Origin: Candidatus Atribacteria bacterium
GTDB lineage: Bacteria; Atribacterota; Phoenicimicrobiia; Phoenicimicrobiales; Stramentimicrobiaceae
Direction of reading: 5' to 3'
NCBI GenBank assembly: GCA_016934875.1
Contig: JAFGSC010000277.1
Coordinates: 1-38,492 of the forward strand
Length of the DNA: 38,492 nt
In this document: in pieces, positions 2,212-37,123 of the stretch
Numbering within the stretch: the stretch's first letter is position 1
Layout: each line of letters opens with the position of its first letter
Made by a program: the position numbers and the translations under genes
Notes under the pieces: generated by a model
Database searches by the model: none
Seen by the model: the letters and a program-made list of their open reading frames with translations, nothing else
Told to the model about the DNA's origin: nothing

Positions 2212-2243
2212 CCCCCCCGCCCCTCCCGCCAAAGGCGGGACAG
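2212..2243. repeat. GC-rich palindromic (REP-like) unit, diverged relative of the units inside fnlC
   Basis: CCCCCCCGCCCCTCCCGCCAAAGGCGGGACAG with stem CCCGCC/GGCGGG. The minus-strand peptide is CPAFGGRGGG, compared with CPPLAGAGGG in fnlC. Confidence 0.55.
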
Positions 2244-2350
2244 GCTTTTTTATAAGGGGGAATGCCAACTACCAGGATGAAGCATTTATTTTTACTATTA
2301 AAACAATAAGCTAAAATTAAATCCAAAGTTACTTTTACACACGAAAGTAT

Positions 2351-2507: not shown

Positions 2508-2602
2508 TAGGGGGTTATACTTTTTAGGGAACGAAATGCAAGCAAGGTTTGCAGGCCATTTAAAATAGTTCACGATATTGTAAAAAACAAAAATCTAAAA
2601 AC

Positions 2603-2714
2603 CTCCCATTTTCTCACTCTCCCAATACTCATCTCTCACTTTCTCAATTTCCCTCTCACCCTCTCATATTCCCACTTTCTCACAATCCCATCTTCTCACC
2701 CTCTCCCCTCTCAC
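2603..2714. repeat. CTCAC/CTCTC low-complexity tract directly 3' of the DUF354 paralog
   Basis: Runs of TCTCAC, CTCTCAC and CCTCTC. A similar tract lies at 10787-10880 behind the other DUF354 gene. Its reverse complement, GAGTGA-rich tracts, occurs at about 490-530, 2031-2050, 6871-7020, 8745-8790 and 10355-10400. Confidence 0.55.
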
Positions 2715-3830
2715 CTAAAACTTTCCTGGTAATCGGGGTTTTCCCCTGTTCACTGAAGCCTTTGGCGAAGGTGAATTCATTTTCTCATAACTTCCGGGAT
2801 AATTTTCGATGAACCAGACGAGAAATTCAGTTACATTTATCGAATCCTCAAGCATGATTTTTCTTTTGGTTTTAGAATCTCCGATTACATTTTTATCGTC
2901 TGCCAGTGACAAAGCTTTTGAAACAGCCATTTCCTGACCTGCTTCAGAAAGGTCGAATTTGTATAGCAAACCATAGGTTTCTGAAAGCTCTTCCAGGTAA
3001 CCAAGCTGCATATGGGTAGCACACACCGACGGCACACCCAAAACTGCCGCCTCTGCAGCCATCGTAGGGCTTTCACCTATGAACAACGATGCAAAGGCCA
3101 GTGCATGGTGCATCTTTTCCGGTGGCAAAAAAGTACGGTAAGGCTGAAGCTCTTTAATTAAAGGTCCTTCTGAGGAAATATACACCTTTAGATTTTTTGA
3201 TAGTGTTCTAACCAACTTTATCTTATGCTTTTCTGAAAAGCCCGAATAACCTTTATCGTGTAAAGCATTAAAGGCAACAAACCTGATGATGCAATACGGT
3301 TCTTCAGGATTTAAGCCGTTTTCAGATACAATCTTTTTATCAGGTTGAAATACGGCAGGGTGCAGATACGCAAGCTCTTTGAAGCCTTTAAGACTTACCT
3401 GTGACAAAGAAAGCTTTTTTTGAAAACAGGAAGGGACAAGGATCGCGGAACTAAGGTTGCCGGTGATTTTGTGAATCCGGGTTGCTGCTTCGGTATCTGC
3501 GCAGGTAATGGTTTTTTTACGGCATAACCAGCCTGCCAGCACCGCATAAGGTGACTCAAAGCTGAGTATTAATTCTATCCTGTTCTTACGGATAATATTC
3601 AGCAGGATAAAGACTTTTTTGAAAATTCTGAAAACCGCTTTTACACGATTACCAGCCGGAGACCTGCCGGTTGATATAAAGGGAATGGAATATGCCTTAA
3701 GCAATACATGGGTAATATCTTTATCAGTGGCAGTTACAAAAATTTTGTGCCCTTTCTCTTTCAACTGAGCGATAACATGTTTGAATGCATGTGCATACGA
3801 AGGGTGGTTGATGTCGAAGAGTATGGTCAT
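2715..3830 (-). CDS. DUF354 family protein (GT-B-like), diverged paralog of 10898-11959; 3' end frame-shifted by a 31-nt insertion
   Basis: 371-aa ORF. The N-terminus ILFDINHPSYAHAFKHVIAQLKEKGHKIFVTATDKDIT matches the DUF354 pattern and the paralog FDVGHPGQVHQFKHVYWELEKIGWECIFVAKDKDIT. See the finding at 2748-2778. Confidence 0.75.
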   Translation of the reverse strand: MTILFDINHPSYAHAFKHVIAQLKEKGHKIFVTATDKDITHVLLKAYSIPFISTGRSPAGNRVKAVFRIFKKVFILLNIIRKNRIELILSFESPYAVLAGWLCRKKTITCADTEAATRIHKITGNLSSAILVPSCFQKKLSLSQVSLKGFKELAYLHPAVFQPDKKIVSENGLNPEEPYCIIRFVAFNALHDKGYSGFSEKHKIKLVRTLSKNLKVYISSEGPLIKELQPYRTFLPPEKMHHALAFASLFIGESPTMAAEAAVLGVPSVCATHMQLGYLEELSETYGLLYKFDLSEAGQEMAVSKALSLADDKNVIGDSKTKRKIMLEDSINVTEFLVWFIENYPGSYEKMNSPSPKASVNRGKPRLPGKF

Positions 3831-3901
3831 GATTTTGGGAAATATCTGAATAAAATGAGAGAAGGATATGGAGAAGTAAACAGTGAGTGAAAGGGTAAAG
3901 A

Positions 3902-3937
3902 AAATTATTTGAAGAATTTATCGGGATTTTTCATCAT
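3902..3937 (-). repeat. Relic 3' end of a four-helix-bundle gene
   Basis: The minus strand reads ATGATGAAAAATCCCGATAAATTCTTCAAATAA = MMKNPDKFFK*. Confidence 0.45.
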
Positions 3938-4025
3938 TAAGATTAATTGACCACAATTCAAAACCATCTCAACGGAGTAACTAAATATTTAACTATCAAT
4001 CTTTAAACGAAATTTAATTCAAATT

Positions 4026-5153
4026 TCATGTTAAATTTCGGCGGCACCAAAACTCGAAAAAAGGATCAATAAATTCGGGTTTTTTTTCGAAAAAATCAAT
4101 AATTTCCTTCATCTCAAGCGATTGTTTTAGTCGCTGCACATTTCCTGTTGTCCCGAGATTATATTTTTTTATTACTTCTTTAGATGTCAGCGCTATTTCT
4201 CCTGCTAATATCGCACGCAATAAATTTAATTGAAGGGAGGTAAGGTTTTCAATATCGCGGACATACATAATCCCATTGTAAAGAAATATTTCCTCTATTG
4301 CATTTTCAATTGTTTCATCATTCACTTCTTTATCGGTATTAATAAATACCTGATGTGCGAGTTGTTGTATATAATATGGTTGATTTTGTGCAATTTCGAT
4401 TATTTTCTTTATTAAATCAACCGAAATAATCCGGTCAGATTTTTCAAATGAAGTTTTAATATGGTCAATCCAATGTGATTCTTTTATTTTTGTCAGATAC
4501 AGCATATCGCCGAAACGATAAAACGGCAACGATTGGCTTTGAAAGAGCTCGTTTATTAAATGTCTTTTACTCCCGTAAAGGCAATAACTTACATTTGTAT
4601 GATATTGCCAAACCGAACGAAGTTTTTGCTGAAAAGATATTCCTTCTGATATTTGACTTATTTTTTGAAATTCATCTACACATATTACCATTCTTATTTG
4701 CTTTTTTAAAGCTACTTTTTCGGGAAGGTTCAAAATTTCAGCAAAAGGGACTTCATTATTTTGATATTCGAATTTTATTTTAAAATCATTTACCGGATCT
4801 ACCCCAAAAGAAATTATTGGAATAACCCCTTTTATAAAATTCTTTGCAATATTTGCCCATTCTTCAATTTTACCAGATGATTTTTTTATTACCCGGGTTG
4901 CCAATGCTTCATAAAACTCTTTTTCACTATTAATTGCAAACATATCTATAGAGCAGACTTTTATTTTCTTGTTTTGCTTTTCAGTAACTTCAGCTGCTTT
5001 CTTTACCAATGAACTTTTGCCCCATCTGCGGGGAGAAACAATCATGGTATTGAGCCCCGAAGCAAAATTTGATGATAACCTTTTCACTTCATCCGTCCGG
5101 TTAATAAAAAATGACCCCGAAACAATTTTGCCAAATGAAAATGGAGTTTCCAT
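4026..5153 (-). CDS. P-loop ATPase (Arch_ATPase/AAA-like ATP-binding protein), function unknown
   Basis: 375-aa ORF. Walker A is SPRRWGKSSLV and Walker B is MVICVDEFQKI. Confidence 0.75.
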   Translation of the reverse strand: METPFSFGKIVSGSFFINRTDEVKRLSSNFASGLNTMIVSPRRWGKSSLVKKAAEVTEKQNKKIKVCSIDMFAINSEKEFYEALATRVIKKSSGKIEEWANIAKNFIKGVIPIISFGVDPVNDFKIKFEYQNNEVPFAEILNLPEKVALKKQIRMVICVDEFQKISQISEGISFQQKLRSVWQYHTNVSYCLYGSKRHLINELFQSQSLPFYRFGDMLYLTKIKESHWIDHIKTSFEKSDRIISVDLIKKIIEIAQNQPYYIQQLAHQVFINTDKEVNDETIENAIEEIFLYNGIMYVRDIENLTSLQLNLLRAILAGEIALTSKEVIKKYNLGTTGNVQRLKQSLEMKEIIDFFEKKPEFIDPFFEFWCRRNLT

Positions 5154-5167
5154 AATATTTTATTCAA

Positions 5168-5185
5168 TTATGCATATTCGCATAA
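5168..5185. promoter_or_regulatory. Palindrome TTATGC-ATATTC-GCATAA between the candidate -7 box and the ATG; possible operator
   Basis: 6-bp arms are perfectly complementary. It lies 15 nt upstream of the ATG at 5153 and just downstream of the -7 box. Confidence 0.25.
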
Positions 5186-5187
5186 TG

Positions 5188-5195
5188 CAAATATA
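5188..5195 (-). promoter_or_regulatory. Candidate -7 box (TAnnTTTG)
   Basis: The minus strand reads TATATTTG, about 35 nt upstream of the ATG at 5153. Confidence 0.4.
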
Positions 5196-5627
5196 GATAA
5201 AATAGCAAAGAAGTCACAAAAATAATGAAATACAATACCCCGTATCGCCTAACACCTAAAGTCTTTCATTATCCTACCCGATACCTAGGCTGCTTTTTGC
5301 CTGGTAGCGGACTGCAACAAAAACAATTTCACCACAGGGCACACTAAAAGAGACAAAGCCTTCAGCATAATACCAAAAAATCTAAAATTATATAAACCAA
5401 CTGCCAGTTGACTTCTGCATATTGACAGGCATGCCTGTGATTTCTCCGTATAGCGCGCGTTTAACGCAGTGTAAAGCGTGCCTGATGTTGTTAACTTTGT
5501 TATATTAACTGCAACTGACTGAAATATATACAAATGAGTTGACAGAAAAGAAACTACCCGTCCGTTCAGGAGGGTAACCAACAAAAACCGGTCTATCTGT
5601 TATGTTGAAAAGGATAAATTTAGTGAT

Positions 5628-6788
5628 TTAATAACCCAAGTCAGCATTTAATAAATACTTCCAACCTGATATTTCGATACCATCTGATCTTTTTTGTTCA
5701 ATTTCACCGGCATATAATATTTTTCCCTGCTTCAGCCCTGATATTTTTTGCCAAAAATGCAATCCTTTGAAATATTCAGGCGTAATTGTTTTACCTGCCT
5801 TTATTTCAACCGGAATCAAACCTTCCGGTTTTTCAATGATGAGATCAACTTCATGGCCTGTATTATCTCTCCAGAAATAAAAATTTTGATTTATTCCCAG
5901 ATTATAACTCCTTTTTAAAAAATCACTTATTATGAAATTTTCGAACATACTACCCGCCAACGGGTGTAATTTTAATTGTTCAATGGTGTGTATGCCCAGT
6001 AAATTACATACTAAACCAGTATCGTAAAAATATATTTTTGGCATTTTAACAATCCGTTTGTTAAAATTTTTATAATGCGGTTGCAGCCTAAATATAATGA
6101 AACTGCTTTCCAGTATTCCAATCCATGATGCTATAGTTTTATTGTCAACACCTGTTTCTATGGCAAGACTATTCATATTTAATAACTGGCCTGTCCTGCC
6201 GGCACAAAGTTTTACAAACCGGTCAAAAACATTTAAATCTGAAATATTCTTTATTTGCCTGACATCTCTTCCAATATATGTCCGTATATAATTAGTTTGC
6301 CAGGTATATGGATCAACGGGCTGGTCGTAAATAGCAGGATAAAATCCTTTTATCATCAGATGATATAAATCCATTTCTGAAATATCAGAAATTTCTGAAA
6401 TTGAAAATGGAAGCAGGTATAAATAAGCAATTCTTCCGGCAAGACTTTGTGATATATTTTCCTGCAGCAGAAAATTGTTTGAACCGGTAATAATAAATCT
6501 CCCCGGGGTATTCACTTCATCAAGTACCTGCTGTATATAGGAAAAAATTTCAGGTACCCTTTGGGCTTCATCAATTATTGCCCCATTTGAATATTGTGCC
6601 AGAAACCCTCTTGGATCATCGATTGCAAATCTTCTGGAATCGGGATTTTCAAGATTTACATACGACAGATTCCGGAAAACATGCCTGGCAAGAGTGGTTT
6701 TCCCAGATTGACGAGGCCCAACTAATGCGACAGCTTTAAATTGCTTTGATAAACTTATTAATCTTTTTTCAGCTTCTCTTTTTATCAT
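5628..6788 (-). CDS. AAA+ ATPase, AAA_14/DUF4143-like, with a C-terminal PD-(D/E)xK-like motif
   Basis: 386-aa ORF. Walker A is GPRQSGKTT and Walker B-like is AIIDEAQ. The C-terminus is GHEVDLIIEK...PVEIKAGKT (D...E-x-K). Confidence 0.8.
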   Translation of the reverse strand: MIKREAEKRLISLSKQFKAVALVGPRQSGKTTLARHVFRNLSYVNLENPDSRRFAIDDPRGFLAQYSNGAIIDEAQRVPEIFSYIQQVLDEVNTPGRFIITGSNNFLLQENISQSLAGRIAYLYLLPFSISEISDISEMDLYHLMIKGFYPAIYDQPVDPYTWQTNYIRTYIGRDVRQIKNISDLNVFDRFVKLCAGRTGQLLNMNSLAIETGVDNKTIASWIGILESSFIIFRLQPHYKNFNKRIVKMPKIYFYDTGLVCNLLGIHTIEQLKLHPLAGSMFENFIISDFLKRSYNLGINQNFYFWRDNTGHEVDLIIEKPEGLIPVEIKAGKTITPEYFKGLHFWQKISGLKQGKILYAGEIEQKRSDGIEISGWKYLLNADLGY

Positions 6789-6870
6789 AAAGCAAATTTA
6801 CAATAATGGAATTAGATTCCAAAATTGTAATAGATTTAAACCTTTATTGCTTATTTGCGCCAGAAACTGA

Positions 6871-7054
6871 AGGGTGATAGGTGGGTAGTGAGCAATGAGA
6901 GGTGAGTGTTGAAGAAAAAGAAGGAATTTATCCGGATTGTTCATTTTGAAGATGGGAAAAGGGGAAGATGAGCGATGAGCGGTGAGTAGTGAGTGATAAG
7001 AGTTGAGTGGAAGTGTAAGAAGGGTTTGCAGAATTTATCCAGATTGTTCATTAT
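6871..7054. repeat. Two tandem units of GAGTGA-rich tract plus four-helix-bundle tail motif
   Basis: Unit 1 ends ...GGAATTTATCCGGATTGTTCATTTTGAAGATGG (6923-6955). Unit 2 ends ...GGGTTTGCAGAATTTATCCAGATTGTTCATTATGG (7022-7056). Confidence 0.6.
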
Positions 7055-7213
7055 GGAAATAAGCATTTTACGGACTTCATTGTATTCGTTCACTATTTCT
7101 TCATACGTATTGATATCCAAATAATTACAATTTTTTGAATAATCCAGCCAAACCTCTGTTTCGTATTCTTCACCAAGGGCATCGCTAAGTTTGCTTACAA
7201 AAGATTTAATACC
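7030..7213 (-). pseudogene. C-terminal fragment (~60 codons) of a four-helix-bundle protein gene (23S rRNA intervening sequence protein family, PF05635-like)
   Basis: The minus-strand frame reads GIKSFVSKLSDALGEEYETEVWLDYSKNCNYLDINTYEEIVNEYNEVRKMLISIMNNLDKFCK. The E-x-E-T-x-x-WL and KML motifs are typical of the family. There is no N-terminal half and no start codon. It begins right after the stop of the upstream gene. Confidence 0.6.
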
Positions 7214-7227
7214 TTAAAAAGATGCAT

Positions 7228-8610
7228 TTATTTTACATCACCGGATGAATTAATCACCTGCTCAGGAGTAAAAACAATAATATCATTTTTAATTTTTGTT
7301 GGTAATTCTTTTAAAAATAATACTTTATGAACTTTTTTTACTTTTCCTGATACCTGAAAGCCTTCAACTTTTTTCTCTAAATTCTGGATCAAAGCATTTA
7401 CATTAATGTTAGATGACCATTTAGCCTCTGCAATTATCAGTTCTGTTCCATCATTTGATGAAGCAATTATATCAATTTCTGATTGCTGTTTGTGGATATT
7501 CGTTCCCCAGCATCTTTTACCCGGATTAAATAGTTTTTCAGGAAATAAAAATGGAATGGAATTCCGGCACAACTCTTCCCAATTTGAACCATAATGCATG
7601 GGAAGCTGTGGAGCGACAATCTCTTCAAAAATCCGGCTTCCAATACCAATCTCAATTGCTGACTTATTTGGTACAACAAATTTGTAATAGAAACTTATAA
7701 AAGGATCGTTTATTTTGTATAATGTTTTCTTAGCGTTTTTATCGTTAAGGCCAAAAGGGATTTCTCTTTTTAAATACCCTAATTCTATTAACTTGTTTAA
7801 CGGGCGGTTTAAATGTGTTGATGGTTTAGCAATTCTTGATGCAACTTCTGATAAGCGGTTTGCCCCTGAAGCTATAATAGAAATTATGGTTGACATCTGG
7901 ACAATATCATTCGTATCATCAAGAAATAAACGGAAAGGCTCTTCATATAATAATCCATTTACATCGAACAGTTGATTTATTACAGCCTCTTTAAGCGATT
8001 GCTCTTTTTCCCGTATTTCCCAGTAGCGCGGAACGCCACCCCATACGCTAAACTCTTCAACAGCTTCAATATATGAACATTGCAGGGCTTCTTTAATCCA
8101 AAAAATATTCATCGGGCCAATTTTCAATATTATATCAGCCCTACCATAAAGAGGCGCAGTATAATCCATAACCAGTTTATGCATCATTTGTTGCGATGAT
8201 CCGCATACAACCAAATGATATTTTAGATTATCGCGCGAATCAAATATTTTCTGAAACAAGCTCGGCAACTCAGGTGCATTTTTTACCAGGTAAGGAAACT
8301 CATCAATGATTAAAACAAACTTTTCATCAGAATGCTGGTTTAGCATATAAAATACACTTTCCCAATCGGGGTATTTTACAGAATCAAAACCCGAAAACCG
8401 CGATGAAAGGGTTTTTACAAAACTTTCAATTTGCATGGTTTTTTCGCGCTGGTCGGCAACAAAATAAAGGGTTTTATTTCCTTTTATTTGCTGTAGCAGC
8501 CTGGTTTTCCCAAGCCTCCTCCTGCCATAAACAACAATAAGCCTTGCTTCATCAAAAGAAAGCGATTTGTTAATTCCTGCTATTTCTTTTTTCCTGTTTA
8601 AGAATTTCAT
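7228..8610 (-). CDS. ATPase with DUF234-like C-terminal nuclease-fold domain (Arch_ATPase + DUF234 architecture)
   Basis: 460-aa ORF. Walker A is GRRRLGKTRLL and Walker B is LIIDEFPYL. The C-terminus is SEIDIIASSNDGTELIIAEAKWS (D...E-A-K). Confidence 0.8.
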   Translation of the reverse strand: MKFLNRKKEIAGINKSLSFDEARLIVVYGRRRLGKTRLLQQIKGNKTLYFVADQREKTMQIESFVKTLSSRFSGFDSVKYPDWESVFYMLNQHSDEKFVLIIDEFPYLVKNAPELPSLFQKIFDSRDNLKYHLVVCGSSQQMMHKLVMDYTAPLYGRADIILKIGPMNIFWIKEALQCSYIEAVEEFSVWGGVPRYWEIREKEQSLKEAVINQLFDVNGLLYEEPFRLFLDDTNDIVQMSTIISIIASGANRLSEVASRIAKPSTHLNRPLNKLIELGYLKREIPFGLNDKNAKKTLYKINDPFISFYYKFVVPNKSAIEIGIGSRIFEEIVAPQLPMHYGSNWEELCRNSIPFLFPEKLFNPGKRCWGTNIHKQQSEIDIIASSNDGTELIIAEAKWSSNINVNALIQNLEKKVEGFQVSGKVKKVHKVLFLKELPTKIKNDIIVFTPEQVINSSGDVK

Positions 8611-8628
8611 TTAATTTATCATGTTTTG

Positions 8629-8636
8629 CAAACATA
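8629..8636 (-). promoter_or_regulatory. Candidate -7 box (TAnnTTTG)
   Basis: The minus strand reads TATGTTTG, 19 nt upstream of the ATG at 8610. Confidence 0.4.
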
Positions 8637-8757
8637 ATGTTTTTATTGCATAATATAATACATTAAAGTGAAAATACAGGGAAATAGTATGGTGAGGAGA
8701 TGGAAATAATTATATAGACCAACTGTCCGGTAATTTCGGCAAAGCAAGCGATGAGTG

Positions 8758-8992
8758 AAATGAGCGGTGAGAGATGAGTGGAAGAGAAAGGAGGATTATT
8801 TACAGAATTTTTCAGGGGGGTTTTACCGTAAAACACACAAAAAACAAACACAGATATATTATTAGTTACCAAACCCTTTGTGTGAACTCTGTGAACTTTG
8901 TGGTTAAAAAAAAAGAAAATACACCTACAGACCGGGCATAAAACCTAACGCCTAATACCTAAAAGCCTAACACCAAAACCGCATTTTGGTGT
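8758..8992. repeat. Direct repeat copy 1 (~230 bp) on the 3' side of the AbiE pair
   Basis: Aligns along its length with 10378-10598. Shared order is TGAGCGGTGAGAG..GGATTATTTRCAGAATTTTTCAGGGG..TTTTACCGTAAAACACACAAA..hairpin..GACCGGGYATAAAACCTAACGCCTAATACCTAAARGCCTAACACCAAAACCG. It contains hairpin 8821-8907. Confidence 0.8.
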
Positions 8993-9014
8993 GTTTTAAA
9001 CTGCATGAAAAAAA

Positions 9015-9713
9015 TTAACTAAGGATTGGAAATTCAAAATACATTTTTAATAACAGAATAGTTTCCTGTTTCAACTTATGCTTTACAAAGTTTTTGAGAT
9101 CAGGATCAACCAATTCACCTAATCCACCTAAAAGCGCAGAGGGTTTTACTTTTTCAATTTTTGAAATACATTGCAGCAGGTATTCTTTAAACTCTTTATT
9201 CATTCTCTGTTCAACAATGGCTTTATTTACAGGGGTTTTTTGCTGCATAAAATAATAAATATCAAAAATATCGCGGTTTGTGAAAACATTTCTGTCTAAC
9301 AAAGCGCATAATTTGTGAGCAAACATATCCGGTTTTTTCATCACATTCATGATAATACCCAGATAATTCTTAGATTCATAACTATCCGGAAACACTCTGT
9401 TTGAAACTTCAATTTTAAGATTACGCTCATGTGCCCCATAATCCAACACCAGCACCAGACCAAAGTATTTCATAGCTTCGTCTCTGATGGCACCATAATT
9501 CTTAAGAATTGACCTGATTTTATCGAATACATACTCACTTCTTTCTTTATCTAAAAGATTAAAGTCAAGGTCAACAGAAAAACGGGGAAGCCCATAAAAA
9601 AGCATTTGCGCAGTGCCGCCCTTAAATCCTAAAGCAGTAGAAAGTTCAATATCTGAAAAAATCTCCTTTAGTATTGATACCAGAAAGAATTTATGTTTAT
9701 TGATGTCAAGCAT
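9015..9713 (-). CDS. abiEii: Nucleotidyltransferase AbiEii/AbiGii-family toxin (DUF1814)
   Basis: 232-aa ORF. The motif GGTAQMLFYGLPRFSVDLDF is characteristic. It overlaps the upstream antitoxin-like gene by 8 nt (ATGCTTGA). Confidence 0.8.
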   Translation of the reverse strand: MLDINKHKFFLVSILKEIFSDIELSTALGFKGGTAQMLFYGLPRFSVDLDFNLLDKERSEYVFDKIRSILKNYGAIRDEAMKYFGLVLVLDYGAHERNLKIEVSNRVFPDSYESKNYLGIIMNVMKKPDMFAHKLCALLDRNVFTNRDIFDIYYFMQQKTPVNKAIVEQRMNKEFKEYLLQCISKIEKVKPSALLGGLGELVDPDLKNFVKHKLKQETILLLKMYFEFPILS

Positions 9714-10275
9714 TTTTAAACATTTTTAATACCCTTTTTTCCAATTCCTTTGATTGGTATAAAACCAGCATTTTCATTATTGATTCTCTGTTCAGGCCAA
9801 GCAAAGAATCAAAATGAAAATTTTTATTAAGATAATTAGTATCCAGGAAGGCCCTCTCGGGAGAGGCAATATTTATCCCGTTCTTTCCACGGTTTATGCC
9901 AACAGCATTGTATAAAACAGGATTTTTTATCTTGCGGTAAACAAGAAAATGCCCGTCAATATCAATGGTACGGCTTAAATAACTTACCAGGGTTATGTTC
10001 GTACTGTATTGAAATATTATTCCGGCTTTTTGTAAAACATATTCGAGAGAAATATACGATGGTGAGTTAACTTTACATGCCAGCTCTTCCGATAAATAGT
10101 CTTCTTTGACATATATTCCCTTTCTTGGATTTCTCAATTTATTTGTTTGCACATAATAATGAATTCTTTGCTTAAGCCGCTTCAATTCGGGAACATTTAA
10201 TAAAAGGGCAATCTCCTTTAATGTGAAAACAGTCCTGCTATCTTTATAAATTTCAAAAATGAAATTTGAACTCAT
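9706..10275 (-). CDS. abiEi: AbiEi-family antitoxin-like protein (type IV TA)
   Basis: 189-aa ORF immediately upstream of, and overlapping, abiEii. The call rests on size and position; the N-terminal region is HTH-like. No search was possible. Confidence 0.6.
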   Translation of the reverse strand: MSSNFIFEIYKDSRTVFTLKEIALLLNVPELKRLKQRIHYYVQTNKLRNPRKGIYVKEDYLSEELACKVNSPSYISLEYVLQKAGIIFQYSTNITLVSYLSRTIDIDGHFLVYRKIKNPVLYNAVGINRGKNGINIASPERAFLDTNYLNKNFHFDSLLGLNRESIMKMLVLYQSKELEKRVLKMFKNA

Positions 10276-10324
10276 GTTGAATTAATTTAAACCAAAGGTT
10301 AGCTTTTTTCAAACCTTTAGTTTA

Positions 10325-10332
10325 CAAATATA
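10325..10332 (-). promoter_or_regulatory. Candidate -7 box (TAnnTTTG) for the abiEi-abiEii operon
   Basis: The minus strand reads TATATTTG, 50 nt upstream of the ATG at 10275. Confidence 0.4.
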
Positions 10333-10377
10333 CTTATTTATTTTGAAGATGGAAAAATGACAGGAGAGAGATGAGAG

Positions 10378-10598
10378 GTGAGCGGTGAGAGTTGAAGAGA
10401 AAAGAGGATTATTTGCAGAATTTTTCAGGGGAGTTTTACCGTAAAACACACAAAGAACAAACAAGGATATACCATTAATTACCCCAAACTCTTTGTGTAA
10501 ACTCTGTGAACTTTGTAACTAAAATAAAAAGAAAATACACCTTCAGACCGGGTATAAAACCTAACGCCTAATACCTAAAGGCCTAACACCAAAACCGT
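10378..10598. repeat. Direct repeat copy 2 (~220 bp) on the 5' side of the AbiE pair
   Basis: See 8758-8992. It contains hairpin 10433-10519 and tail motif 10405-10425. Confidence 0.8.
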
Positions 10599-10599
10599 T

Positions 10600-10776
10600 T
10601 TTTGCCCATGCTTCTGAAATAATTGATGTTACTGACCTTGACGAAAGTTGTAATTAATGGGTTAAAGAATATTTCTCTTCCTTAGGAAAGCTTTTTGTTA
10701 TCTCAAATATCTTCATGGCAAGCTTATATGCCTTTTGATAGACGATCAAATCCCTGAAACCATTAATCTGAGCCAT
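10600..10776 (-). pseudogene. N-terminal fragment of a four-helix-bundle protein gene with an in-frame stop, truncated by inserted repeat DNA
   Basis: The minus strand from the ATG at 10776 reads MAQINGFRDLIVYQKAYKLAMKIFEITKSFPKEEKYSLTH*LQLSSRSVTSIISEAWAKNGF. The F-x-DL-x-V(W/Y)QKA...FPKEE-x-YSLT..SSRSV...AEAW pattern is typical of PF05635. TAA sits where Gln is expected. Similarity stops near 10600. Confidence 0.65.
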
Positions 10777-10786
10777 AACCTGACAA

Positions 10787-10880
10787 CCACTCACCTCTCA
10801 CCTCTCCACTCCCTTCTTTAAGCTTTATGCTTTACGCTCTTCTCCTCCCCCACCTTTCTCCGCCCACTTTCCCCTTTTAT
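10787..10880. repeat. CTCAC/CTCC low-complexity tract between DUF354 and the four-helix-bundle relic
   Basis: CCACTCACCTCTCACCTCTCCACTCCC...CTCCTCCCCCACCTTTCTCC. It is an approximate reverse complement of GAGAGAGATGAGAGGTGAGCGGTGAGAG at 10355-10390. Confidence 0.5.
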
Positions 10881-10897
10881 TTTTTATCTTTTGTCTT

Positions 10898-11959
10898 TCA
10901 CCTAAACCTATCCTGGTAATCCGGGTTTTCTTTTATTATCCTCAAGCTATCGGGATAGTTTTCGATGAACCAGACAATGAATTTAACAGGATTAATTTTC
11001 TGACTAATATATTTGGAATGATTTCTTGTTTTGTCAGAAAAACCTGAAATGATTAGTTTTTGAATTTCATTCAAGTTTGTAGTCTGAAATAATAATCCAA
11101 AATCAGATTGTTCTTTTAAATAGCCCATAATCGGTAAAGGATTTATATAAATCACTGGCGTATTAAGGCAGGCTGCCTCAGATGCCATTGTGCCTCCTTC
11201 TCCAATATAAAATGAAGCTTCCTTTAGAATAGAATGAATATGAATTGGATTTATTTGTATCTTGTGATCATGTAATTCTTTAGGCAAAGGACCTTCAGAT
11301 GAAATAAAAACTTTATATTGACTTTTCATAATTTCAACAAGACGAATTTTTTCATCCCATGACATATGTCTTATACCAACATCATGGTGAGCTTTCCATG
11401 AAACAAATCTAATAAGGCAATATTTAGAATTTGCCGGAATTTCTAATAAAGCATAAGGATCAATACTTGGTTTAAAAATATCTGGGTGCAAATAAAACAA
11501 TTCAATATTGCTATCATATTTTATGTGATTCTTACCCAGATTATTATAATATGTTTTTCCGGTAAACTTAATGTCCACGAATGGTATGGTCAATTTATGA
11601 AGTTTTACTGCATGTTCTGTATCTGAAAATCCTATATTAATAATTTTTAGAAGTTTAGAAATATGTCCACTATGAATTGAAAAGCGGTTAAGTATAAAGT
11701 CTGGTTTAAAGTTTTTTACGATTAAATAAAAATTCCAATCATTTCGTGGAACTTGAATAATCTTATTTAACAAACCTTTTCTGGACTCAGATAGTCTGAA
11801 ATAATCTAATTTATACTCTTTTAGTAAATCAATCGTAATATCTTTATCTTTAGCAACAAAAATGCACTCCCACCCTATTTTTTCCAATTCCCAGTAAACA
11901 TGTTTAAATTGGTGAACCTGGCCAGGATGACCAACATCAAAAACAATTCGATTTTTCAT
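10898..11959 (-). CDS. DUF354 family protein (GT-B-like), last gene of the polysaccharide operon
   Basis: 353-aa ORF. The N-terminal DUF354 pattern is FDVGHPGQVHQFKHVYWELEKIGWECIFVAKDKDIT. Its start abuts the stop of the upstream gene. Confidence 0.75.
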   Translation of the reverse strand: MKNRIVFDVGHPGQVHQFKHVYWELEKIGWECIFVAKDKDITIDLLKEYKLDYFRLSESRKGLLNKIIQVPRNDWNFYLIVKNFKPDFILNRFSIHSGHISKLLKIINIGFSDTEHAVKLHKLTIPFVDIKFTGKTYYNNLGKNHIKYDSNIELFYLHPDIFKPSIDPYALLEIPANSKYCLIRFVSWKAHHDVGIRHMSWDEKIRLVEIMKSQYKVFISSEGPLPKELHDHKIQINPIHIHSILKEASFYIGEGGTMASEAACLNTPVIYINPLPIMGYLKEQSDFGLLFQTTNLNEIQKLIISGFSDKTRNHSKYISQKINPVKFIVWFIENYPDSLRIIKENPDYQDRFR

Positions 11960-32719: not shown

Positions 32720-33692
32720 TTTTCGTGTATGTAAAATAATTTTTTGCCCATTCAATAGTTTTCTCCAAACCCAATTTAAAATCTGTAATGAAATCTAAAT
32801 TTAATTCATTTATAATTTTGGTGTTATCAATATCAAATATCTTAATATCACCGGGCATCCAATCTTTATATATGATTTCAGGGTCATTAACATTCAATAA
32901 TTCAGCAATGTTGTCAACCAATTCCCTAATTGTAACTTTAATACCTGATGCACAATTATAAACTTGACCATTTGATTTTTCATTTGAAGCGGCTTGGATA
33001 TTAGCTTTAACAACATCTTTAACATAGGTAAAAGAACGCTGTTGTGTACCATCACCAAAGATGGTTAAGGGCTCTTTTTCGAGTAATTTTCTTGTAAAAA
33101 TAGACACAACACCTCCAACGTCACTCGATTCCTGTCTGGGACCATATACATGAAAGTATCTTATTACAGTTGTGTTCAGCCCATAGAGATGGTTAAATGC
33201 TTTAACATATTTTTCCCCTGCAAGTTTACTTACTCCATAATAGGAGGTTGGAATCAAAGGATGATTTTCATCTTGTGGAAAATAAAGCGCTTCGCCATAC
33301 ACTGAACCGGTTGATGCATGTACAAATTTCTTTATTTTATGTTTAACAGCTAATTCTAAAAGATTAAATGTACCTTTTGCGTTAATATCTAAATCTAATC
33401 TTGGATTATTCAAACATATAGTTTTTTTCGATGCAGCTTGATGAAAAACTACATCAACATCTTTGAATAGCTCATCTAAACATTCATAATCTAAAACATC
33501 ACATTTTATCTCAGTAAAATTAGGATATGTTTTTAAATGTGCCAGATTCTCTTTTTTCCCTGCAAAATAATTATCAACACTAATTGTATCTACACCTATT
33601 TTTACAAGTTCTTCAGTAATATGACTACCAATAAATCCTGCACCTCCAGTAACTATTGCCTTTTTATAAGGCAGTTTTTCATTATTACTCAT
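32712..33692 (-). CDS. NAD-dependent epimerase/dehydratase (extended SDR)
   Basis: 326-aa ORF with TGGAGFIGSH and YGVSK (YxxxK). Confidence 0.8.
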   Translation of the reverse strand: MSNNEKLPYKKAIVTGGAGFIGSHITEELVKIGVDTISVDNYFAGKKENLAHLKTYPNFTEIKCDVLDYECLDELFKDVDVVFHQAASKKTICLNNPRLDLDINAKGTFNLLELAVKHKIKKFVHASTGSVYGEALYFPQDENHPLIPTSYYGVSKLAGEKYVKAFNHLYGLNTTVIRYFHVYGPRQESSDVGGVVSIFTRKLLEKEPLTIFGDGTQQRSFTYVKDVVKANIQAASNEKSNGQVYNCASGIKVTIRELVDNIAELLNVNDPEIIYKDWMPGDIKIFDIDNTKIINELNLDFITDFKLGLEKTIEWAKNYFTYTKNV

Positions 33693-34071
33693 TTGATTTT
33701 TTAATGTTAGTATTATAAAATTTTACATTTATAGTTTCAAGTACCCAGTTTTTAAAATCACCATTTAAAAAATATCAATAATCGCTCAATTGCTCTCCAC
33801 CTTTAAAAAATACCTGTTATAAACAAGTAAAATATTGTTGCAGTATCTAGCTGTATGCTCAAAAATTGATGTTTTCAAAAAAACTTATAACAATATATTT
33901 CTAAAAGTCTATAAATTTTAGACCTGGCATCCTGTGCTTTGGTTTGTTCAAAACTTCATAACTATATGACAGCCGTAGTCAGAATGGCTGACAGAATACC
34001 TAATAGACAAAATGTCTTATTCTTGATTATTTTTAGCGAATTTAGTCAAAAAATCTTCAATTATTAAAAAC

Positions 34072-35310
34072 TCATGTTATCCCATGCCACCTGTTCGATA
34101 AACCTGCCAGTCCCTGTATCAGTTTCAAAACCCTCCACGATGTATCGTTAATTGAATAATCTGCCACATTGTTATTGTATTTTCGTGACCTGTGTTCAGC
34201 AATGGCTGTTTCAATACTGTTTAAAACTACATCTTTGTTAAACCCTGTAAGAATAATAGTTCCGGCATCCTGTGCTTCGGGGCGTTCCATGGAGTTACGC
34301 AGCGAAATTGCCGGGAAGCTCAGAATAGCCGATTCCTCGCTGATGGTGCCGCTGTCGCTGATGGTGCAGGCAGCATGCATTTGGAGGGCTACGTAGTCGG
34401 TGAAGCCAAACGGTTTTAAGAACTGTATCATATGCTGTTGACTGCCGGGTTGTCCACCCCCTGCCCCCGCCAGCGGGGGACATTGTTCAGATTTGGCAGA
34501 CTGCTGACTACTATTTAGTTCTTCGATGCGTTTTAGGGTACGAGGATGGGTGGAGACAATTACCGGGTAATTATATTTTTCCACCAGTGATTCGAGTATA
34601 GCAAGTATGTTTTTCAGGTTCTCGGGATTGTCTACGTTTTCTTCGCGGTGGACGGAAACGATGAAATATTTACCGGGTATAAGTCCACCCCCTGCCCCCG
34701 CCAGCGGGGGACAGTTTTCAGCAAGATTAATATCTTTAAGGATAGTAGAGGTATCGATTTTGGGACGGTAATAATCCAATACTTCCTTCATGGGTGAACC
34801 GGTGAGGTAAATTCTTCTGTGGGGCAAGCCTTCGCTTAATAAGTGCCGGCGGGCATGCTCGGTATATACCAGGTTGAAATCGGCAATATGGTCTATAATA
34901 CGCCGGTTTATTTCTTCGGGTACATTAAAATCGAAACAGCGGTTACCTGCCTCCATATGAAAAATAGGTATATGCAATCTTTTGGCCATATATGCAGCCA
35001 GGCATGAATTTGTGTCACCCAGCACCAGCACAGCATCGGGCTTTTCTTTTTTAAGCACCTCTTCAGATTTGCGTATGATGTCGCCTACTGCGGCACCCAG
35101 CGATGAGGTGTCCACATTCAGAAAATAATCGGGTTTGCGTATTTCAAGATCCTTAAAAAAAATCTCGTTTAACTCGTAATCGTAGTTTTGCCCGGTATGT
35201 ACCAGAATATGGTTTGTATATTCATCCAGCCGCGCCATTACGCGCGAAAGACGTATGATTTCGGGGCGCGTGCCGAGGATTGTAAGGATTTTGAGTTTAT
35301 TTGTTTTCAT
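34072..35310 (-). CDS. fnlC: UDP-2-acetamido-2,6-dideoxy-L-talose 2-epimerase (FnlC/Cap5G/WbjD type, non-hydrolysing UDP-GlcNAc 2-epimerase family) carrying two in-frame repeat insertions
   Basis: 412-aa ORF with ILGTRPEIIRLS, LVLGDTNS, MEAGNRCFD..VPEEINRR, HREEN, STHPRT and ISDSGTISEE. It lies in context with fnlA and fnlB. Confidence 0.8.
   Translation of the reverse strand: MKTNKLKILTILGTRPEIIRLSRVMARLDEYTNHILVHTGQNYDYELNEIFFKDLEIRKPDYFLNVDTSSLGAAVGDIIRKSEEVLKKEKPDAVLVLGDTNSCLAAYMAKRLHIPIFHMEAGNRCFDFNVPEEINRRIIDHIADFNLVYTEHARRHLLSEGLPHRRIYLTGSPMKEVLDYYRPKIDTSTILKDINLAENCPPLAGAGGGLIPGKYFIVSVHREENVDNPENLKNILAILESLVEKYNYPVIVSTHPRTLKRIEELNSSQQSAKSEQCPPLAGAGGGQPGSQQHMIQFLKPFGFTDYVALQMHAACTISDSGTISEESAILSFPAISLRNSMERPEAQDAGTIILTGFNKDVVLNSIETAIAEHRSRKYNNNVADYSINDTSWRVLKLIQGLAGLSNRWHGIT
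34452..34482. repeat. 31-nt GC-rich palindromic unit inside the fnlC coding sequence (copy 1)
   Basis: GTCCACCCCCTGCCCCCGCCAGCGGGGGACA, identical to 34683-34713. It is translated as CPPLAGAGGG. Confidence 0.9.
34683..34713. repeat. 31-nt GC-rich palindromic unit inside the fnlC coding sequence (copy 2)
   Basis: Identical to 34452-34482. It is translated as CPPLAGAGGG. Confidence 0.9.
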
Positions 35311-35320
35311 AATTATGGTT

Positions 35321-35362
35321 CTCGCGGAGTCGCGCAGAGTTTGACGCAGAGTTCCACAGATT
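35321..35362. repeat. Inverted-repeat flank R of the GxxExxY cassette
   Basis: CTCGCGGAGTCGCGCAGAGTTTGACGCAGAGTTCCACAGATT is an imperfect reverse complement of 35769-35809. A paralogous copy lies at 35865-35898. Confidence 0.65.
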
Positions 35363-35383
35363 TAAATGCAAAGTAGTGCAAAT

Positions 35384-35761
35384 TTATAATTTATTCACGA
35401 TACGAACTATTCCATCTTTCATAGAGGAAACATTAAAATTCATAAGTAACCCAAGTTTTTTATCTGCCAGTTTTAAATAAGTAAGCAATTGTTTATGATG
35501 TACATCTAACAAAGTTTCAACGGATTTAATTTCAACAATTACCAAATCATTTATTAATAAATCTATGCGATAACCAATATCCATTTTAATGGTATCATAT
35601 ATCATAGGCAGTCCCACTTGTGTTTGAACTACCAAACCTTCCTTTTTAAGTTCATGTGCAAGCGCAACTTCATACGAAGATTCGAGTAAACCAGGTCCCA
35701 ACACAGTGTGGACTTTAAATGCGGCTCCTCTAATGGTATATGATAATTGATTTTCCTTCAT
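35384..35761 (-). CDS. GxxExxY protein (PD-(D/E)xK, PDDEXK_3/TIGR04256-like)
   Basis: 125-aa ORF with the GLLESSYEVAL (G-x-x-E-x-x-Y) and DLLINDLVIVEIKSV (D...E-x-K) motifs. Confidence 0.85.
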   Translation of the reverse strand: MKENQLSYTIRGAAFKVHTVLGPGLLESSYEVALAHELKKEGLVVQTQVGLPMIYDTIKMDIGYRIDLLINDLVIVEIKSVETLLDVHHKQLLTYLKLADKKLGLLMNFNVSSMKDGIVRIVNKL

Positions 35762-35768
35762 CTGTTTT

Positions 35769-35809
35769 CTGCGTCACTCAGCGGTTAACTCTCCGTGCCT
35801 CTGCGAGAG
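35769..35809. repeat. Inverted-repeat flank L of the GxxExxY cassette
   Basis: The sequence is CTGCGTCACTCAGCGGTTAACTCTCCGTGCCTCTGCGAGAG. Its reverse complement matches 35320-35353 at about 25 of 34 positions. Confidence 0.65.
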
Positions 35810-35819
35810 CTGCAAGGCA

Positions 35820-36000
35820 TGAATTGTGAGCATTTTGAGTTTATTTGTTTTCATAATTATGGTTCTCGCAGAGTTGCGCAAAGTTTAACGCAGAGTACCG
35901 CTGTTTATTTATTTATAAATTATTTACCATTCGAATGATACCATCTTACATTTATATTTTCTGCGAAACTCAGCGGTTAACTCTGTATAACTCCGCGAGA
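35820..36000 (-). pseudogene. Decayed tandem copy: fnlC 5' relic, flank R, 12-codon GxxExxY relic and flank L
   Basis: 35832-35869 is identical to 35288-35325 (38 nt, including ATGAAAACAAATAAACTCAAAAT). The relic M*DGIIRMVNNL* corresponds to MKDGIVRIVNKL*. Flank L copy 35961-36000 corresponds to 35769-35809. Confidence 0.75.
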
Positions 36001-36004
36001 CATC

Positions 36005-37123
36005 TTATACCTCTTCATAATAAGTATCCTGATCATCAGGGTTGAAAAACTCATTTATCCAGAAAATAGTGTACAGTTCTTCGTTTCCGGTGTTAGTTAT
36101 ATTATGAGTGTACCAGATAGGCATATCAACATAAGATGGCTCATTTCCATCCAGGTCAAAATTTAAAACTTCAGATGTTCCGATCCTTCTTAATTGAATT
36201 CTTGCTTTACCTTTAATTACAGCAAACCTTTCAATTTTTCGTGTATGAAAATGGTTGCCACGTGTAATACCCGGTTTGGTTGTTGAAAAAGATATTTGCC
36301 CGCCCAGTTGTGTCTTAATGGTTTCAACAAAAGTGCCCCTGTCATCGGTGTTTAGTTTTAGTCTTACAGGGTAATGGTTTCCAATGTCTATATAACACCT
36401 GAAAGTATTGAACAGGTTGGTATCAAAACGATCGTTTAATTCAGGGAACATTCCATTATCAAAATACTGTTCCTTGTAAGCACTGAGCTTTCCCAGGATG
36501 TCAGTAACTTTTATTTCCGAGGTATGATTTATCCTGCACTCTGCGAGTGAAAACTGATAATGAATTGCTTTCCAGATTTCCTGTACGAGTTCTCCTACGT
36601 AAATAAGTTTTAGCTGCCCGTCAATTTCAATTTTAGGTTCTTCGTTATGGGTAAGCTGGTGGCAAAATGTAGCAACCACCGAATTATAATACGGGTTGCC
36701 AAAAGGGCCGAAGACATTGGGTATGATAAACCCTGTAAAGAGAGTCTGGTTTTTATTGGCCCATTCAGTAAGCATCTTTCTTCCTTCAAGTTTCGATTTT
36801 CCATACAGGTTATCCCTTTCTTCCTGTGTAGACGAGGCAAACAATATATGCGGTTTTGAGCCGGTATCATCAAGCGCCTGTAAGAGTTGCCTGACCAGCC
36901 TGATGTTGGTATCATAAATAGCCTGAGGGTCATTATGCCTGTTCATTGCTGCCAGGTGGACAATTACATCGCATTGTTTTACAAATTCCTTAAGCTTTTC
37001 ATGGTCAGAAAAAAATTCATCACGAAAAGGTATCCGTGTAACTTCGTCTTTCTTAAGTCCAAGAAAATTATACAGATGGGTGCCTATAAACCCGGACTGA
37101 CCGGTGATGCCGATAGTTATCAT
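36005..37123 (-). CDS. fnlB: Bifunctional reductase/epimerase of the UDP-L-FucNAc pathway (FnlB/CapF/WbjC type: N-terminal SDR plus C-terminal cupin)
   Basis: 372-aa ORF with GITGQSGFIGTHL at the N-terminus and a cupin-like RGNHFH...NTGNEE at the C-terminus. It lies between fnlA and fnlC. Confidence 0.8.
   Translation of the reverse strand: MITIGITGQSGFIGTHLYNFLGLKKDEVTRIPFRDEFFSDHEKLKEFVKQCDVIVHLAAMNRHNDPQAIYDTNIRLVRQLLQALDDTGSKPHILFASSTQEERDNLYGKSKLEGRKMLTEWANKNQTLFTGFIIPNVFGPFGNPYYNSVVATFCHQLTHNEEPKIEIDGQLKLIYVGELVQEIWKAIHYQFSLAECRINHTSEIKVTDILGKLSAYKEQYFDNGMFPELNDRFDTNLFNTFRCYIDIGNHYPVRLKLNTDDRGTFVETIKTQLGGQISFSTTKPGITRGNHFHTRKIERFAVIKGKARIQLRRIGTSEVLNFDLDGNEPSYVDMPIWYTHNITNTGNEELYTIFWINEFFNPDDQDTYYEEV

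Follow-up and report, generated by a model that had tools for sequence, protein, structure and literature searches.

A 30-bp hairpin repeat found in frame in an epimerase gene recurs across bacterial phyla and, as an inverted pair, at both ends of a cassette that encodes a DUF559 endonuclease

Introduction

Small palindromic repeats, such as the repetitive extragenic palindromic (REP) sequences, the Rickettsia palindromic elements (RPEs), the small dispersed repeats (SDRs) and dRS3, are abundant in bacteria. To our knowledge, a candidate enzyme exists for just one of these classes, namely the REP-associated tyrosine transposases (RAYTs) of the GTAG REPs. Here we describe a 30-bp hairpin unit present in two copies within fnlC, a UDP-GlcNAc 2-epimerase gene on a 38,492-nt contig deposited as Candidatus Atribacteria (JAFGSC010000277.1; the whole of this stretch is referred to as the window). 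The same unit is found across phyla and is the terminal inverted repeat of a cassette encoding a DUF559 endonuclease.

REP units occur together with a RAYT gene that is bracketed by inverted units (Bertels & Rainey 2011, PMC3116915; PMC3733652). A separate superfamily of CGTC-tagged REPs, which includes Neisseria dRS3 and Rickettsia RPE-4 and RPE-6, is defined by an 8-9-bp stem starting with A/T pairs, a loop of 4-5 nt and the tail CCA (Di Nocera et al. 2013, PMC3733652). The CGTC tag is 'changed to TGTC ... in many repeats', TGTC and CCTC being its variants, and the repeats are present in Bacteroidetes, Chlorobi and other phyla, are documented inside open reading frames (ORFs), and, as the largest survey of such repeats puts it, 'apparently lack a dedicated transposase' (PMC3733652). 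As to DUF559, this family has been placed in one PD-(D/E)xK clade with Vsr and the homing endonuclease I-Bth0305I (PMC3424549), and a large survey of inversions found its genes overrepresented 14-fold among those with inverted repeats on either side, without explanation (PMC9881135).

Results

The repeat is a sharply bounded 30-nt hairpin

A first inspection of the window (the original prediction) had described two identical 31-nt palindromic copies within fnlC, and these were recovered exactly. The 31-mer GTCCACCCCCTGCCCCCGCCAGCGGGGGACA (+ strand) occurs just twice in the window, at 34452-34482 and 34683-34713; a scan of the whole window found no further match with up to 3 mismatches, and 100 dinucleotide shuffles gave a chance expectation of 0. 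To find relatives elsewhere, we scanned one genome per species with a core pattern that left three positions free and that did not extend to positions -2, -1 and +1. In 131 copies, position -1 was always C, position +1 was A in all but one (130/131), and position -2 was T in 110 and A in 20. Beyond these three positions there was no conservation outside the search pattern. Since conservation stops there, the unit is 30 nt long with sharp boundaries (TCCACCCCCTGCCCCCGCCAGCGGGGGACA on the + strand). The palindromic repeat first reported is therefore real, but its length is 30 rather than 31 nt, the leading G of the 31-mer lying outside the unit.

On the coding strand of fnlC the unit has the layout TGT-CCCCCGC-TG-GCGGGGG-CA-GGGGGTGGA, that is, an all-G/C stem (CCCCCGC/GCGGGGG) of 6-7 bp, a loop of 2-4 nt and the tail CAGGGGGTGGA. 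This 11-nt tail, CA-GGGGGTGGA, repeats the 3' arm of the stem. The ends of the unit are TCC... and ...ACA (TGT on the opposite strand). It comprises exactly 10 codons and contains stop codons in none of the six frames. The + strand hairpin has a folding energy of -15.9 kcal/mol (z = -2.5), and on the mRNA-sense strand the downstream G-run provides an alternative pairing partner for the C-run. An Rfam E-value search over 33500-36200 gave no match at the units. At the recovered loci, the stems of perfect hairpins followed by ACA are CCCCCGC (the majority), CCCCCTC or CCTCCGC; all pair perfectly, the changes being compensatory. A Hamming scan of the same loci revealed numerous near-copies and subfamilies.

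The unit is dispersed across phyla in non-coding and coding DNA

Among the matches listed, the core of the unit is present at at least 120 loci in about 69 assemblies from several phyla. The hosts in this set include Syntrophia (Smithella/Syntrophaceae), Planctomycetota (Brocadiaceae/Brocadia and others), Nitrospirota and Desantisbacteria, together with a range of Bacteroidota (Bacteroidales, Pedobacter, Chitinophaga, Fulvivirga, Saprospirales, Ignavibacteria and Kapaibacterium (Kapaibacteria)). Chromosome-level records and one cultured Bacteroides are among the assemblies, none of the hosts of these listed loci is a Rickettsia, and a viral collection gave only 3 matches. The flanks of the unit are unrelated between lineages; within one genome it often lies inside a longer local repeat.

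The majority of copies are in short open stretches, i.e. intergenic. A minority lie inside long ORFs, in four different frame/orientation combinations, and several of the host proteins were confirmed by Pfam: an Rhs/TcdB toxin (L002), an ASPIC/UnbV FG-GAP protein (L015), an SBBP propeller/DUF7948 protein (L086 and its Brocadia orthologues) and proteins in which the unit lies within the Por_Secre_tail domain of the type IX secretion system (L091 and L093). Since in-frame copies occur in such proteins elsewhere, RPE-like behaviour is a general property of the family. The original prediction had proposed a repeat family occupying both coding and non-coding DNA, as opposed to a local duplication, and the number of loci, of both kinds and with unrelated flanks, bears this out. 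Its further claim of a diverged intergenic relative holds at the level of architecture (Table 1). Counting this relative (2212-2242), the window has three elements consisting of TGT plus a GC hairpin, where shuffled sequences had a mean of 0.26 and a maximum over 50 shuffles of also 3. The CCCGCC/GGCGGG stem variant of the relative is also found upstream of a DUF559 gene (L144).

We noted several further features of coding and near-coding copies. The Brocadiaceae Rhs/TcdB-type ORF (L002, 2-6445) has two units in opposite orientations, read as VHPLPPPAGD and SPAGGGRGW, and a low-complexity stretch with further hairpin-derived peptides (SPFIKGD, SPLEKGDQGG and PLSKGGEGG). In the window, a spurious 62-aa ORF (MSPAGGGRGWTT..., MSPAGGGRGW...; 34295-34483, minus strand) starts inside copy 2 in another frame, and units of this kind probably seed many false 'hypothetical protein' calls. 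Heptamer arrays (GTCACCC, CGTAAAT, TGTTCAT, AGTCAGG, GAGCTAT, CTCCTTA) abut the unit at many of the motif loci.

Inverted units bracket a DUF559 endonuclease gene

From the motif loci, every ORF reaching 70 aa was entered into a clustering (2117 ORFs). Among the matches listed, the only small gene that recurred was DUF559 (PF04480, 105.7 bits), at 10 loci from at least six lineages; no other small gene recurred among the 2117 ORFs, a clustering that included no search aimed at Y1_Tnp. In those 10 loci the DUF559 gene lies between inverted units. The left end of this cassette has the form TGTCCCCCGCTGGCGGGGG-linker-GGGGGTGGA and lies 20-120 nt upstream of the gene, and the right end, TCCACCCCC-linker-CCCCCGCCAGCGGGGGACA, is at or just past the stop codon. 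The cassette measures about 0.47 kb, with the DUF559 endonuclease as its sole gene, and one locus (L088) has an internally deleted derivative. Clusters of histidine-kinase and TPR/kinase ORFs also recurred at motif loci; they were rejected because these are widespread multi-copy families whose placement with respect to the unit is not fixed.

The association was also approached from the protein side, using 80 metagenome DUF559 loci picked by protein patterns only. Under a loose criterion (at most 9/30 mismatches), a unit in the expected orientation was found upstream at 51/69 loci and downstream at 59/69, as compared with 11 and 7, respectively, in the wrong orientations. A strict regular expression detected TGT+hairpin upstream of 37/61 DUF559 genes and hairpin+ACA downstream of 41/61, against a background in distal DNA of 0.014 and 0 per 250 nt. 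Measured from one outer end to the other, the cassette had a median length of 466 nt. After the hairpin, most cassette ends carry GGGGGTGG(A), and several have CCGGATGTACA, AAGTACTTCGA or a second GTCAC hairpin instead. Some cassettes are about 90% identical and yet sit in unrelated flanks.

The core of the DUF559 protein matches the Neisseria gonorrhoeae DUF559 structure 3hrl at 7e-23 and, at 0.0017, the homing endonuclease I-Bth0305I (3r3p), and residues D51, E62, D64, H68 and D77 are invariant in eight cross-phylum sequences. The bracketed architecture is consistent with the 14-fold enrichment of DUF559 in the inversion survey; we found no published description of a DUF559-hairpin cassette in the literature.

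Two further observations concern these genes. At the left ends of three cassettes (L011, L087 and L041) the inner arm GGGGGTGGA precedes the DUF559 start codon by 5-25 nt, where it could double as a Shine-Dalgarno-like sequence. In Neisseria and Kingella, a DUF559 gene of the 3hrl family occupies the carA-carB spacer and has inverted hairpin units of a different sequence on both sides (TGCCCTCTC...CTCTCCCGTGGGAGAG...GAGAGGGCA; L204 1264-1306, 1443-1480, 2028-2070 and 2135-2166; also L206 and L207). These follow the same plan of stem-loop, linker and repeated 3' arm, which suggests that the association of DUF559 with hairpins extends beyond the family studied here.

Both copies in the window lie in variable loops of FnlC

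The host ORF scores 230 bits against TIGR00236 (non-hydrolysing UDP-GlcNAc 2-epimerase; curated cutoff 210) and aligns with the CapG/FnlC-type structures PDB 4hwg and 7ya2 with E ~1e-117. Its neighbours are FnlB/WbcJ-like and short-chain dehydrogenase/reductase-type genes, FnlA- and FnlB-like genes adjoining it. Both units are in phase 0, (35310-34713)/3 being 199 and (35310-34482)/3 being 276, and both read TGT CCC CCG CTG GCG GGG GCA GGG GGT GGA, giving CPPLAGAGGG; the insert-bearing protein includes the peptide stretch ENCPPLAGAGGGLIPGK. HMMER alignments to 4hwg and 7ya2 are interrupted at the units, by a 14-aa gap at site 1 and by about 25 aa at site 2. The second loop lies between the helix STHPRT..KRIEEL and the strand IQFLKPFGF, and the copy within it has CAGCAGT-type heptamer remnants on its flanks.

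In a set of 117 FnlC orthologues with identities of 70-84%, 48 sequences have a loop of 10 aa before YF.VS.HREEN (range over the set 9-58 aa) and 64 a loop of 12 aa before (I/L)xF.KPFGF (range over the set 11-56 aa). Only the window FnlC and a 76%-identical orthologue (P0002) contain CPPL(A/E)GAGGG, the inserts of other orthologues at these loops being unrelated, low-complexity sequence. In an AlphaFold model of FnlC (predicted template modelling score, pTM, 0.81; template modelling score ~0.8 to the CapG-type structures 7ya2 and 4hwg), insert 1 is a low-confidence coil before strand E216-220 and insert 2 a coil between helix 256-273 and strand E295-298, with a per-residue confidence (pLDDT) below 50 for aa 276-289. 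Helix-to-strand loops of Rossmann-type domains are on the face opposite the substrate cleft, and from this topology the FnlC inserts would also be expected to face away from the cleft. All columns invariant in the 117-sequence alignment, including HREEN and STHPR, are kept in the window FnlC; we conclude that fnlC is intact and its product probably functional.

These results uphold what had originally been claimed for the gene: that CPPLAGAGGG is encoded on the minus strand inside an open 412-aa epimerase ORF, that the insertions fall before YFIVSVHREEN and between STHPRT... and ...LKPFGF, that both positions are variable loops, and that the inserts are lineage-specific. Nor is there any sign of a pseudogene, the ORF being intact and the modelled inserts lying in low-confidence loops that precede strands.

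Gain, loss and uniformity of copies at orthologous loci

The locus that encodes P0002 (L121) has the same fnlA-fnlB-GxxExxY-fnlC synteny as the window, and the genes of the two are about 72% identical in DNA. At site 2 of its FnlC there is an orthologous unit, TGTCCCCCTTTGGAGGGGGCTGGGGGAGGA, with conserved flanks, which differs from the window unit at 5/30 positions, including a compensatory G-C to T-A change. The same variant unit (IEQCPPLEGAGGGHQT) is present in its fnlB beside an AATCACC x8.7 array, where the window FnlB has a clean 30-aa gap. Conversely, site 1 of FnlC has the unit in the window and only heptamers in L121. The two copies in the window are identical to each other, as are the two in L121. 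For a genome's own copies to be identical while the genes are only about 72% identical, either the insertions must be recent and independent, at preferred sites, or the copies must have undergone gene conversion with one another. In addition, 4/4 coding copies in the two loci are preceded on the coding strand by GAA-MAN (GAAAAC, GAACAA, GAAAAG and GAACAA), which is either a short lineage-specific extension of the unit or a target preference.

The unit is not the only repeat in these loops. A third orthologous locus (L203) has (TCACCAA)x6 at fnlC site 2, and L121 has TCAGCAG, CACTAGT and TGTCACT heptamer arrays and a nested 42-nt palindrome. At the level of DNA these inserts derive from repeats, and the two FnlC loops are general landing pads for heptamer arrays, other palindromes and the hairpin unit. 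The 42-nt palindrome (CCTTCGCCTGCCGAAGCTTTAGCGAAGGCAGGGGTCAGCGAT, peptide PSPAEALAKAGVSD; L121 fnlC site 2, 10839-10880) is unrelated to the hairpin unit. Peptides related to PSPAEALAKAGVSD (PLPAEASAKAG, RRSFSEGGS and PKLQRRRES) are found in the loops of P0004, P0027, P0036 and P0003, which points to at least one further repeat family colonising the FnlC loops. Heptamer arrays (AATCACC, TCAGCAG, CACTAGT, TGTCACT, TCACCAA, TGAGAGG and TAAAACC) are both intergenic and in frame in the fnlB and fnlC loops, beside units. They were located at 8589-8649, 10563-10671 and 10933-10961 in L121, at fnlC site 2 in L203, and at 10358-10395, 8939-8980, 10555-10596 and 2651-2715 in the window.

Table 1. Coordinates of the hairpin units, their relative and their host gene in the window
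Feature	Positions	Strand	Remarks
Host gene, FnlC/CapG/WecB-type UDP-GlcNAc 2-epimerase	34072..35310	-	412 aa, intact
Hairpin unit copy 1, 30 nt, TCCACCCCCTGCCCCCGCCAGCGGGGGACA	34684..34713	+	minus strand = fnlC codons 200-209, CPPLAGAGGG
Hairpin unit copy 2, 30 nt, same sequence as copy 1	34453..34482	+	minus strand = fnlC codons 277-286, CPPLAGAGGG
6-nt lineage-specific segment adjoining copy 1	34714..34719	+	GTTTTC; coding strand GAAAAC (E-N)
6-nt lineage-specific segment adjoining copy 2	34483..34488	+	TTGTTC; coding strand GAACAA (E-Q)
Expanded FnlC loop 1	34669..34740	-	aa 191-214, 24 aa vs basal 10; before strand YFIVSVHREEN; holds unit copy 1
Expanded FnlC loop 2	34423..34521	-	aa 264-296, 33 aa vs basal 12; holds unit copy 2
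Intergenic relative, same architecture	2212..2242	-	TGT-CCCGCC-TTT-GGCGGG-AGGGGCGGGGGGG (G-run after stem)

Genomic surroundings

The fnlB-fnlC spacer (window 35279-35906; L121 9369-9755; L202 1886-2245; L203 3042-3392) is a hotspot for small selfish-looking genes. In the window (35384-35761, minus strand) and in L121 it contains a GxxExxY/PDDEXK_3 gene, and at three orthologous loci a 23S_rRNA_IVP four-helix-bundle gene is found instead. On either side of the spacer gene of the window stands one copy of an 84-nt direct repeat (35279-35362 and 35823-35906, 88% identical), a duplication of the start region and 5' end of fnlC, and inverted repeats are present at 35771-35808 and 35864-35901.

Positions 1-11000 of the window contain four AAA_14/DUF4143/ATPase_2-type genes (687-1949, 4026-5153, 5628-6788 and 7228-8610) and an AbiEii toxin gene (9015-9713). 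The spacers of this region have mosaic repeats in common (families D1-D11), for example 8776-8893 and 10389-10506, which are 83% identical. Finally, we noted that the named close relatives of the FnlC protein come from metagenome-assembled genomes (MAGs) of Bacteroidales or Ignavibacteriales, where the repeat family is typical; the bin assignment of the contig to Candidatus Atribacteria may be wrong.

Discussion

The results presented above show a hairpin repeat family with defined boundaries, its spread over coding and non-coding DNA, its gain and loss between related genomes, compensatory stem variants, and inverted units that form the ends of a DUF559 cassette. We judge it likely that the 31-mers in fnlC are solo copies of this dispersed 30-bp REP-like repeat, on which DUF559 would act. 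At 10 codons, and with all six frames free of stops, a unit inserted into a tolerant part of a gene would survive as a 10-residue Gly/Pro/Ala-rich loop insertion. In this FnlC clade the two pre-strand loops of the C-terminal Rossmann-like domain tolerate almost any insertion, and both have gathered heptamer arrays, other small palindromes and the hairpin unit. Because the arrangement parallels that of REP units around RAYT genes, DUF559 is the best candidate for an enzyme that recognises the hairpin. By this analogy, the nuclease might either mobilise solo units in trans or keep the copies uniform, the latter perhaps by Vsr-like nick-directed short-patch repair or by gene conversion; its role as the responsible enzyme, and the route by which units move, are proposed on these grounds.

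A broader and distinctly more speculative idea is that DUF559 proteins are the dedicated partners of the TGTC/CGTC-type hairpin superfamily, a second REP-nuclease system, independent of HUH transposases, in which the nuclease would nick the extruded hairpin and either copy solo units to new sites, coding loops among them, or hold all copies alike by very-short-patch-like directed repair. If correct, this tentative scheme would explain the identity of copies within genomes, the compensatory changes between genomes and the near-identity across phyla, and DUF559 would be the 'missing transposase' of the CGTC REPs.

A number of observations weigh against a DUF559-driven mobile unit. We know of no demonstrated transposase or homing activity of DUF559 on such sites. 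There is no DUF559 gene in the window, L121, L202 or L203, most solo units have none within 8 kb, and one Kapaibacterium chromosome has about 10 unit loci with no DUF559 gene near. In the protein-side sample only TGT and the hairpin are constant and the linker varies; the inner GGGGGTGGA arm is common yet replaced in several cassettes. The resemblance between a cassette's own two ends exceeds that between ends taken from different cassettes only modestly (at most 3 mismatches in 7/35 own pairs and in 4.6% of cross pairs), and the signal of concerted evolution is weak because linker lengths differ. The identity of the 27-nt core across phyla was partly imposed by the exact-match search. Neither a clean empty/filled nucleotide pair nor a transposition intermediate was obtained, and solo units had no convincing signal of target-site duplication (k = 2-5, 16 boundary offsets). 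Finally, the site-2 insertion may be old, because it is common to the window and an orthologue only 72% identical in DNA, so the identity of copies 1 and 2 needs homogenisation or re-insertion, which is unproven.

The age of site 2 also bears on an explanation by local events alone, in which the site-2 insert was copied 231 nt away by template switching or gene conversion and is not generally mobile. The two copies are 100% identical at that distance and have similar 6-nt prefixes (GAAAAC and GAACAA), site 2 is common to L121 and hence older than site 1, and L121 itself has two identical copies in neighbouring fnlB and fnlC. However, likeness past the unit is at most 4/6 nt, and local copying could account only for copy 1 and not for the family: because the same 30-mer is present, with sharp boundaries, at at least 120 unrelated loci in many phyla, a purely local origin cannot explain it. 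We therefore regard this explanation as unlikely. Selection for a function in the host, with the unit acting in cis as, for example, an RNA stabiliser, a terminator or a protein-binding site, as has been suggested for many REPs, rather than being selfish mobile DNA, and with a regulatory role around DUF559 (a 5' UTR with SD-like GGTGGA and a 3' hairpin), would fit the stable + strand hairpin, the compensatory stem variants, the position of GGGGGTGGA 5-9 nt upstream of the DUF559 start codon in some cassettes and the T-run that follows the 2212-2242 relative on the + strand. Yet the unit itself lacks a U-tract, is found in both orientations and varied frames within coding sequences that are unrelated to one another, keeps the same sequence in phyla whose transcription and translation signals differ, and is present or absent between close relatives, all of which leaves such an element with little probability. 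A terminator was specifically rejected, there being no T-run and the unit occurring within ORFs in both orientations.

That the contig is labelled Candidatus Atribacteria although its FnlC relatives look like Bacteroidales or Ignavibacteria might raise the suspicion of a chimeric or technical sequence, an assembly or binning artefact. Against this, the frame is kept at both sites, the orthologous site of an independent assembly (L121) holds a variant of the unit, and the unit occurs in the roughly 69 assemblies listed, from many laboratories and platforms, including chromosome-level records and the cultured Bacteroides isolate; an artefact is thus extremely improbable. We consider it no more credible that the units are degenerate or solitary CRISPR-type repeats. 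The stem CCCCGC..GCGGGG does resemble type I-E repeats, two copies in L111 are 59 nt apart, and a Klebsiella type I-E repeat variant shares 18 nt with the unit; this last match came from a literature search with the exact hairpin string and was judged to be due to chance. The units form no arrays, their spacings being irregular (110-860 nt), no cas gene recurs among the loci, no Rfam CRISPR-DR match falls at the units and copies lie within coding sequences, and this reading was rejected.

The preferred explanation, a dispersed REP-like unit with a DUF559 partner, is of interest in several respects. The 30-bp unit was tied to DUF559 in two independent ways, from the motif side and from the protein side, and DUF559 is a very widespread gene of unknown function, so that both the repeat and the protein family now have a testable hypothesis. 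The unit also illustrates with unusual clarity how non-coding DNA becomes protein, the same 10 codons being found in epimerases, toxins, propellers and secretion-signal domains of different phyla. In practical terms, units and heptamer arrays make proteins longer, give rise to spurious small ORFs and can lead orthology and domain calls astray when MAGs are annotated.

Comparison with known systems

The unit is neither a GTAG REP nor a CRISPR repeat, and it is probably no RPE-1. Like the Rickettsia RPEs, it is palindromic, occurs in frame in genes and is tolerated as an extra surface peptide. RPE-1, which is restricted to Rickettsia, is about 100-150 bp long; the unit is 30 bp, has an apparently unrelated sequence, is found in free-living anaerobes of several phyla and is accompanied by a nuclease cassette. 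The resemblance to RPEs drawn in the original prediction stands for in-frame insertion behaviour; the unit is probably not a member of the RPE families. With that qualification the initial observation is confirmed, and its interpretation as REP/RPE-like behaviour is supported.

SDR4-6 of Nostoc/Anabaena, which Elhai and colleagues are said to have described in 2008 as hairpin-forming mobile repeats of 21-27 nt, reportedly insert into one another and adjoin heptamer tandem repeats (short tandemly repeated repetitive sequences, STRR). No associated gene is known to have been identified for them. The unit behaves alike, in that heptamer arrays adjoin it and the L121 insert has a 42-nt palindrome nested within it, whereas the sequences and the hosts differ. 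The nuclease, for its part, is comparable to free-standing Vsr-like (EDxHD) homing endonucleases such as I-Bth0305I, both being small selfish-looking genes in varied contexts with a homologous core; the DUF559 cassette, however, is associated with no intron or intein, and its ends are full inverted hairpin units rather than split target-site halves. A miniature inverted-repeat transposable element (MITE), a non-autonomous derivative of an insertion sequence, has terminal inverted repeats, a target-site duplication and a parent element that encodes a transposase. Inverted units stand at both ends of the cassette and an internally deleted derivative exists (L088); no target-site duplication was found around solo units, a solo unit is one end and not a pair, and DUF559 is not a known transposase.

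The nearest class described so far is that of the CGTC/TGTC-tagged REPs, with which the unit has in common the stem-loop-tail plan, copies inside genes and hosts in Bacteroidetes, Chlorobi and further phyla. On the coding strand the unit begins 5'-TGTC, as many of these repeats do, with the C opening its stem; the tag of the superfamily is unpaired. The all-G/C stem of 6-7 bp, the loop of 2-4 nt and the 11-nt tail depart from the published definition. Because the published definitions of stem, loop and tail fail, we have not filed the unit in this superfamily. We know of no DUF559 link described for CGTC REP families.

There is also a parallel with the REP/REPIN-RAYT (TnpA_REP) systems (Nunvar 2010; Bertels & Rainey 2011; REPINs being inverted doublets of REP units). 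The unit carries the tag TGT(C) in place of GTAG, and between its inverted copies lies a gene for a DUF559 PD-(D/E)xK (Vsr-like) nuclease in place of an HUH/Y1 transposase. Most units stand alone or form direct arrays instead of inverted doublets, and they are near-identical across phyla, where REPs are usually lineage-specific. What the two have in common is the absence of a target-site duplication, a single nuclease gene between inverted units, and the basic design of the repeat: a GC-rich stem-loop of 20-40 bp bearing a short tag that stays unpaired, found many times in a genome and for the most part between genes.

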